In this document: positions 57,232-57,425 of the stretch, piece by piece
How the letters are laid out: each line of letters begins with the position of its first letter
Position numbering within the stretch: the stretch's first letter is position 1
NCBI GenBank assembly: GCA_016840085.1
Contig: JAEOTA010000004.1
Coordinates: forward strand, 1 to 64,000
Origin: Promethearchaeota archaeon
GTDB taxonomy: Archaea; Asgardarchaeota; Lokiarchaeia; Sigyniarchaeales; SOKP01
Length of the DNA: 64,000 nt
Direction of reading: 5' to 3'
Program-made: the position numbers and the translations under genes
Notes under the pieces: model-generated
The model's input: only the letters and a program-made list of their open reading frames with translations
Database searches by the model: none
Told to the model about the DNA's origin: nothing

Positions 57232-57425
57232 GCCAAGGTGGCGTAGCCCGGTATGCATTGGAGCTTTTCCACTGATGGGTAAGAACGCACCAGATCCATC
57301 GGATTTACCGAGAAAGGTGATACTGAAGATCTGGGTATCGAGAACTCTGGTTGTTTCAACCATTTTCGATAAGGTTCAAAGAAAAAGCCCAATTTTGAGT
57401 TTTTTTGGGACTCCCTCCCTTGGCA
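57232..57425 (+). tRNA. tRNA-Phe(GAA) with four introns; exons 57232-57251, 57283-57293, 57322-57342, 57373-57380, 57412-57425
   Basis: Joined exons give GCCAAGG TG GCGT AGCCCGGGA ACGC A CCAGA CT GAA GA TCTGG GTATC GAGGG TTCAAAT CCCTC CCTTGGC A (74 nt, all stems Watson-Crick). Each junction has a 4-bp helix with 3-nt bulges. Confidence 0.92.

Follow-up and report, generated by a model that had tools for sequence, protein, structure and literature searches.

[quoted passage not shown]

The tRNA-Phe(GAA) gene found within a 64,000-nt stretch of DNA (the window; contig JAEOTA010000004.1, positions 1 to 64,000) of G000, the focal Lokiarchaeia (Promethearchaeia) MAG bin, is real and is cut by four introns, but it holds no record in intron number. 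It was proposed in the initial annotation that the gene may match or exceed the known record. However, four-intron tRNAs were already listed for Freyarchaeia (Arg-TCT, Ile2-CAT, and Leu-GAG) and Atabeyarchaeia (Trp-CCA) (PMC11291895 Supplementary Data 4, 2024), and up to five introns per Asgard tRNA gene are given in a recent preprint (bioRxiv 10.64898/2026.10.13.758758, 2026). The same annotation had stated that its claim of novelty would fall if four-intron Asgard tRNAs were already catalogued, and this is the case. The sequence data point, with little doubt, to a functional single-copy gene, transcribed as a precursor of ~200 nt. The genus shows many allelic combinations, of which the four-intron state is one, with 0–4 introns per gene distributed over about nine sites.

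Anatomy of the locus and its splicing motifs

Table 1. Parts and neighbors of the tRNA-Phe(GAA) gene (positions in the window)
Feature	Position	Strand	Description
tRNA-Phe(GAA) gene	57232..57425	+	194 nt, five exons and four introns; CCA not encoded
Exon 1	57232..57251	+	20 nt; acceptor 5' strand, D-stem 5', D-loop up to G19
Intron 1	57252..57282	+	31 nt, site 19/20; central helix GCCC/GGGT
Exon 2	57283..57293	+	11 nt; D-stem 3' and anticodon stem 5' up to G30
Intron 2	57294..57321	+	28 nt, site 30/31; central helix CACC/GGTG
Exon 3	57322..57342	+	21 nt; GAA anticodon loop, anticodon stem 3', variable loop, T-stem to G51
Intron 3	57343..57372	+	30 nt, site 51/52; central helix ATCG/CGAT
Exon 4	57373..57380	+	8 nt; end of T-stem and T-loop
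Intron 4	57381..57411	+	31 nt, site 59/60; central helix TTCA/TGGG, inner helix 7 bp
Exon 5	57412..57425	+	14 nt; T-stem 3', acceptor 3' strand, discriminator A73
HAD hydrolase gene	56455-57135		flanks tRNA-Phe on one side
1374-aa ORF	57625-61749		no Pfam match; flanks tRNA-Phe on the other side
43-nt AT-rich element	57130..57172	+	~100 to 60 nt upstream of tRNA-Phe, conserved in the genus; putative promoter

Introns make up 120 of the 194 nt of the gene (31 + 28 + 30 + 31), and the joined exons form a 74-nt molecule which is called tRNA-Phe(gaa) by ARAGORN. In the raw window, both ARAGORN and Rfam cmscan report a tRNA-Gly only and give no call at the tRNA-Phe locus, as the initial annotation had anticipated for standard scanners. 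Its description of the four junctions matches the sequence, and its assignment of four non-canonical introns of the bulge-helix-bulge (BHB) type to positions 19/20, 30/31, 51/52, and 59/60 (a numbering that counts position 17a), with none at 37/38, is correct. The exon/intron frame was also obtained without use of the motif: the intronless orthologues of G001, G031, and G068 give the same 74-nt frame, and the frame of exon 1 is that of the intronless orthologues L025 and L027.

At all four junctions, the central helix of the BHB is paired 4/4 at the exact boundary, with the predicted cut site after the second base of each 3-nt bulge. When the letters of the introns are shuffled, the chance of a 4/4 helix at the individual junctions is 0.009, 0.003, 0.014, and 0.021 (product ~7e-9). 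The flanking helices differ in length. In intron 4, the inner helix (h') has 7 bp and the outer one, formed by exons, is extended from 2 bp to 5 bp after removal of the other introns, and in intron 3 helix h comprises 5 bp, including wobbles. Introns 1 and 2 look like relaxed BHBs: the first has an h' of 2 bp and an h that begins past a mismatch, and the second has 1 bp on each side. Two helices depend on the 8-nt exon 4, the outer one of intron 3 and the central one of intron 4.

In folding ensembles computed with ViennaRNA, no helix but that of intron 3 is stable in the full-length precursor. The probability of the central helix is ~1.0 for intron 3 and 0.15–0.57 for intron 1; for introns 2 and 4 it stays at ~0 throughout all intermediates. 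The BHBs of introns 2 and 4 would therefore need an enzyme-induced or refolded structure, a real caveat to a purely thermodynamic model of splicing.

A T-rich tract follows exon 5. The 43-nt element upstream of the gene is a putative promoter; a second copy, a direct repeat with 93% identity, lies at 56367-56409, and the pair brackets the HAD gene. Further upstream, a repeat-rich ORF of 799 aa (53657-56056), with a hydrophobic C-terminal stretch and only a weak RCC1 repeat above the Pfam cut-off, overlaps, on the opposite strand, the end of a gene for a peptidase inhibitor of the chagasin family (I42; 56049-56333). The genes adjoining tRNA-Phe vary widely between the genomes of the genus.

A single tRNA-Phe gene and the machinery expected to splice it

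The possible presence of another tRNA-Phe gene, raised as a check in the initial annotation, was addressed in the whole G000 assembly, and none was found. Translation should thus depend on the four-intron tRNA-Phe. A 'Phe' call by ARAGORN on contig C77 was rejected: it requires an 825-nt intron and is absent from the custom tRNA census. According to that census, in which intron boundaries outside tRNA-Phe are approximate, G000 has ~37 tRNA genes, 31 of them intron-bearing, with 48 introns (~1.3 per gene). Six genes are intronless, 19 have one intron, eight have two, three have three (Ile-UAU, Trp, and Leu-CAA), and tRNA-Phe, with four, is the most interrupted tRNA gene recovered. About 10 tRNAs (including Cys, His, elongator Met, Thr-GGT, Gly-CCC, and Arg-CCT) were not found in G000 with the queries used.

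In G000, a tRNA-Ile(GAU) carries a 30-nt intron at ~7/8, where the acceptor strand ends, and a tRNA-Sec carries two introns (G000:C81:31475-31578 and C32:24374-24527). The last of the three introns of tRNA-Ile(UAU) (G000:C32:27182-27368, minus strand) has 54 nt and lies at 38/39, with a 4/4 helix; a tRNA-Ile with the UAU anticodon was also found at L201 (G044). No match to the TiaS domain PF08489 was obtained in the 61 class-level genomes searched, and the domain was detected in four control archaea. Lokiarchaeia may read AUA without agmatidine.

The splicing of the precursor is most likely carried out by an (alpha-beta)2 EndA together with RtcB. The RtcB gene is present in G000 on C83. The single EndA paralogue, on C79, has other residues in place of the Tyr and His that are catalytic in the M. 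jannaschii chain, and is therefore the structural, beta-like subunit. A 16S rRNA model search of G000 gave no match, and the assignment to Lokiarchaeia is based on the named neighbors of this beta gene, which are Promethearchaeota/Promethearchaeia bins, Loki_b32 among them. Most of 61 relatives have two EndA paralogues. The catalytic alpha gene was not found in the G000 assembly, and neither were its neighbors in relatives (V-ATPase A, a MEMO1-like gene, and the adjoining gene in G032/G029), so their joint lack looks like an assembly gap. Marker completeness of G000 is 98.8% despite the failure to find the EndA alpha gene, V-ATPase A, and ~10 tRNAs. The closest matches of the genus alpha subunit are crenarchaeal alpha chains of the A. 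pernix and S. tokodaii type, with the specificity loop (L1) included; the L1 loop has been reported in Asgard archaea (PMC5829648).

If splicing follows the pathway established for archaea, the (alpha-beta)2 EndA would cut past the second bulge base at every relaxed or canonical BHB, RtcB would join the exons, and CCA would be added afterwards. The introns probably leave one at a time. The order may be tentatively read from the structures: intron 3 would be removed early, since no other intron has a stable helix in the full precursor, and intron 4 would follow it, since both use the 8-nt exon.

An assembly without the EndA alpha gene and several essential tRNAs is also what might be expected if the locus were a decaying copy, inactivated by the inserts, with an intronless tRNA-Phe in an unassembled region, and the unfavorable folding of the BHBs of introns 2 and 4 could be read in the same way. 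This pseudogene reading is very improbable in the light of the genus. Spliced alignment without the BHB motif recovered 46 tRNA-Phe copies from 44 genus genomes, and where pattern searches detected a Phe locus in a genus genome, it was nearly always the only one, as in the single-contig G006 and G022. G076, G032, and G013 have the same exon sequences as G000. After splicing, the 46 orthologues show pairing in 964 of 966 stem cells, with compensatory, double-sided changes at 2-71, 6-67, and 28-42 as well as 50-64 and 52-62 (acceptor, anticodon, and T stems). The splicing helices are retained likewise: 4/4 in all 26 copies occupied at 19/20 and in all 28 occupied at 30/31, where the AGTG helix variant is restricted to copies with the exon CACT (three genomes). 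A functional gene, spliced at four separate junctions, is the reading preferred here. That the precursor is processed otherwise, by fewer and larger excisions, removal of nested introns, self-splicing, or trans-splicing of split halves, is hardly credible: the 60-nt jump into which a generic profile scan at first fused introns 1 and 2 was rejected, as its product has a mispaired D-arm; orthologues bear each intron independently, in many combinations; introns of 28–31 nt fall far below the size of a group I or II ribozyme; and the five exons are in order, contiguous, and colinear, so that the gene is neither a split (trans-spliced) nor a permuted tRNA.

Distribution and origin of the introns in the genus

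Among the 46 copies, three have no intron, six have one, 15 have two, 11 have three, and 11 have four. Exactly the four sites of G000 are occupied in seven genomes (G000, G076, G032, G013, G025, G066, and G073). Out of 46, site 19/20 is occupied in 26 copies, 30/31 in 28, 51/52 in 16 (mostly with a relaxed 3/4 helix outside G000), and 59/60 in 19; further sites are 15/16, 22/23, 37/38, 47/48, and 58/59. The length of 28–31 nt is found in 93 of 113 Phe introns across the genus and in 33 of the 47 tRNA introns compared in G000.

The four introns are mutually unrelated by sequence, and each is a member of a site-specific family across the genus: mean intron identity within a site is 0.58–0.73 (four sites) vs. 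0.34–0.45 between sites. Sequence comparison gave no support for copying of introns between tRNA genes, nor for donors elsewhere in G000. No two of the 48 introns compared in G000 are more than 64% identical (best cross-gene identity 0.64 vs. a shuffled maximum of 0.58), and the Phe introns are at most 0.54 identical to other introns of the genome. An origin from pieces of mature tRNA was not supported either, with a mean longest tRNA match of 7.3 vs. 7.5 for shuffled introns.

When intron presence at the four G000 sites is mapped on an rpoA1 tree of 41 genomes, the number of changes required is close to that for shuffled labels: 14 vs. 12.9 at 19/20, 10 vs. 11.2 at 30/31, 10 vs. 12.4 at 51/52, and 13 vs. 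13.6 at 59/60, counts which leave out the tree of the PINA gene, partly in conflict with that of rpoA1. Only site 58/59 is clustered. Whole tRNA-Phe alleles, with introns included, are common to distant species of the genus and unlike between close syntenic ones. In G024, the 874 nt that lead up to the tRNA on its contig share 91% identity with G000, and rpoA1 shares 90%, yet its introns lie at 15/16, 22/23, and 37/38, and none of the four of G000 is present. The mature tRNA of G024 is identical to that of G002, G015, and G075, although rpoA1 identity is 79%, and its 15/16 intron is 97% identical to that of G002, with a short leader matching. Similarly, the tRNA-Phe of G023 shows no difference to G028 vs. 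six to the sister G036, and in this case rpoA1 is on the same contig as the tRNA. Identical introns of 28–31 nt were found where the third positions of rpoA1 are only 57–62% identical.

These observations, drawn from MAGs and one marker gene, suggest lateral replacement of the tRNA-Phe gene between species of the genus, a proposal to which we give slightly less than an even chance. Somewhat more tentatively, the replaced tract may be short, about the size of the precursor (a few leader bases, exons, introns, and trailer), with introns gained and lost at fixed sites. It is also quite possible, though we would not put it at even, that the patchy introns result from vertical descent only, with repeated gain, precise loss, and strong conservation of the introns, or from chimeras of binning or assembly. 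Intron identity correlates with rpoA1 identity (Spearman 0.26–0.51), the genomes are MAGs with 1–10% contamination, G004 has three Phe alleles, and the trees rest on single genes. Against descent or chimerism stand the synteny of G024 with G000, the rpoA1 gene on the tRNA contig of G023, and the introns which stayed identical despite the divergence of rpoA1. Allele exchange, if true, would be a route for the spread of introns; even then, the first arising of a new intron would be left unexplained.

A separate arrangement was observed at G000:C83:171624-172730. Here, tRNA-Val(CAC) is followed by a Cys-rich, HNH-like frame of ~296 codons (recognized by eye) and then by a diverged second Val 3' half, which has its own 30-nt T-loop intron; the intact tRNA-Val(CAC) is without it. 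The arrangement looks like an integration relic, and it is possible that such an element served as a vehicle for intron exchange.

The window also contains a BHB-like insert outside tRNA genes. This 30-nt insert, with an in-frame stop (6018-6047, minus strand), lies just before the C-terminal IAGG of a ThiS/ubiquitin-like ORF (~6003-6236). An insert is present at the same point in five of 29 genus loci (G000, G022, G030, G005, and G009), and the other 24 read straight into HIAGG. By its sequence, it is a candidate mRNA intron. The crenarchaeal cbf5 pre-mRNA carries a BHB intron, and the ThiS/ubiquitin-like ORF resembles that case, which concerns an mRNA and not a tRNA, in having a BHB-like motif.

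Comparison with known systems and significance

Introns have been found in 92–95% of the tRNA genes of Atabeyarchaeia and Freyarchaeia (PMC11291895). The tRNA-Phe gene described here is like the published Asgard tRNAs in having several short non-canonical BHB introns, in its expected (alpha-beta)2 EndA, and in being missed by annotators. The published Asgard set lists a three-intron tRNA-Phe, and there, as here, intron sequence is rarely shared between tRNA types. In the preprint, annotator misses, repeated gains, and little copying between tRNAs are described, splicing is not demonstrated, and the arrival of introns is left open; its main text does not mention Lokiarchaeia, recombination, horizontal transfer, mRNA introns, or the sharing of alleles between species. 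The ~1.3 introns per gene of G000 compare with 2.2 in its focal families and 0.91 in other Asgard archaea, and the peak length of 28–31 nt with a median of 22–23.

In Thermoproteales, three-intron tRNAs are known, e.g., tRNA-Pro(UGG) of Pyrobaculum islandicum (review PMC4090602). Excision that depends on BHBs at non-canonical sites, including 30/31 and 59/60, and a broad-specificity (alpha-beta)2 EndA are described there (PMC4090602) and predicted here. However, one of the three introns of the P. islandicum gene is canonical, whereas none of the four is canonical here. In addition, the introns of Thermoproteales form families across tRNA types, whereas near-identical cross-tRNA introns were not found in G000.

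With this gene, an essential tRNA is correctly annotated where ARAGORN and Rfam miss it, and four-intron tRNAs are extended to Lokiarchaeia. The genus set, with 0–4 introns, nine sites, intronless alleles, and close genomes that differ in every intron, forms a natural series usable for the study of the substrate range of EndA, the order of splicing, and the movement of tRNA introns between lineages. The remaining interest lies mainly in the ~30-nt size common to tRNA introns and mRNA inserts, with at least one such mRNA in the window, and in the lead on allele exchange, which, if true, would come near the question of intron arrival that the preprint leaves open.
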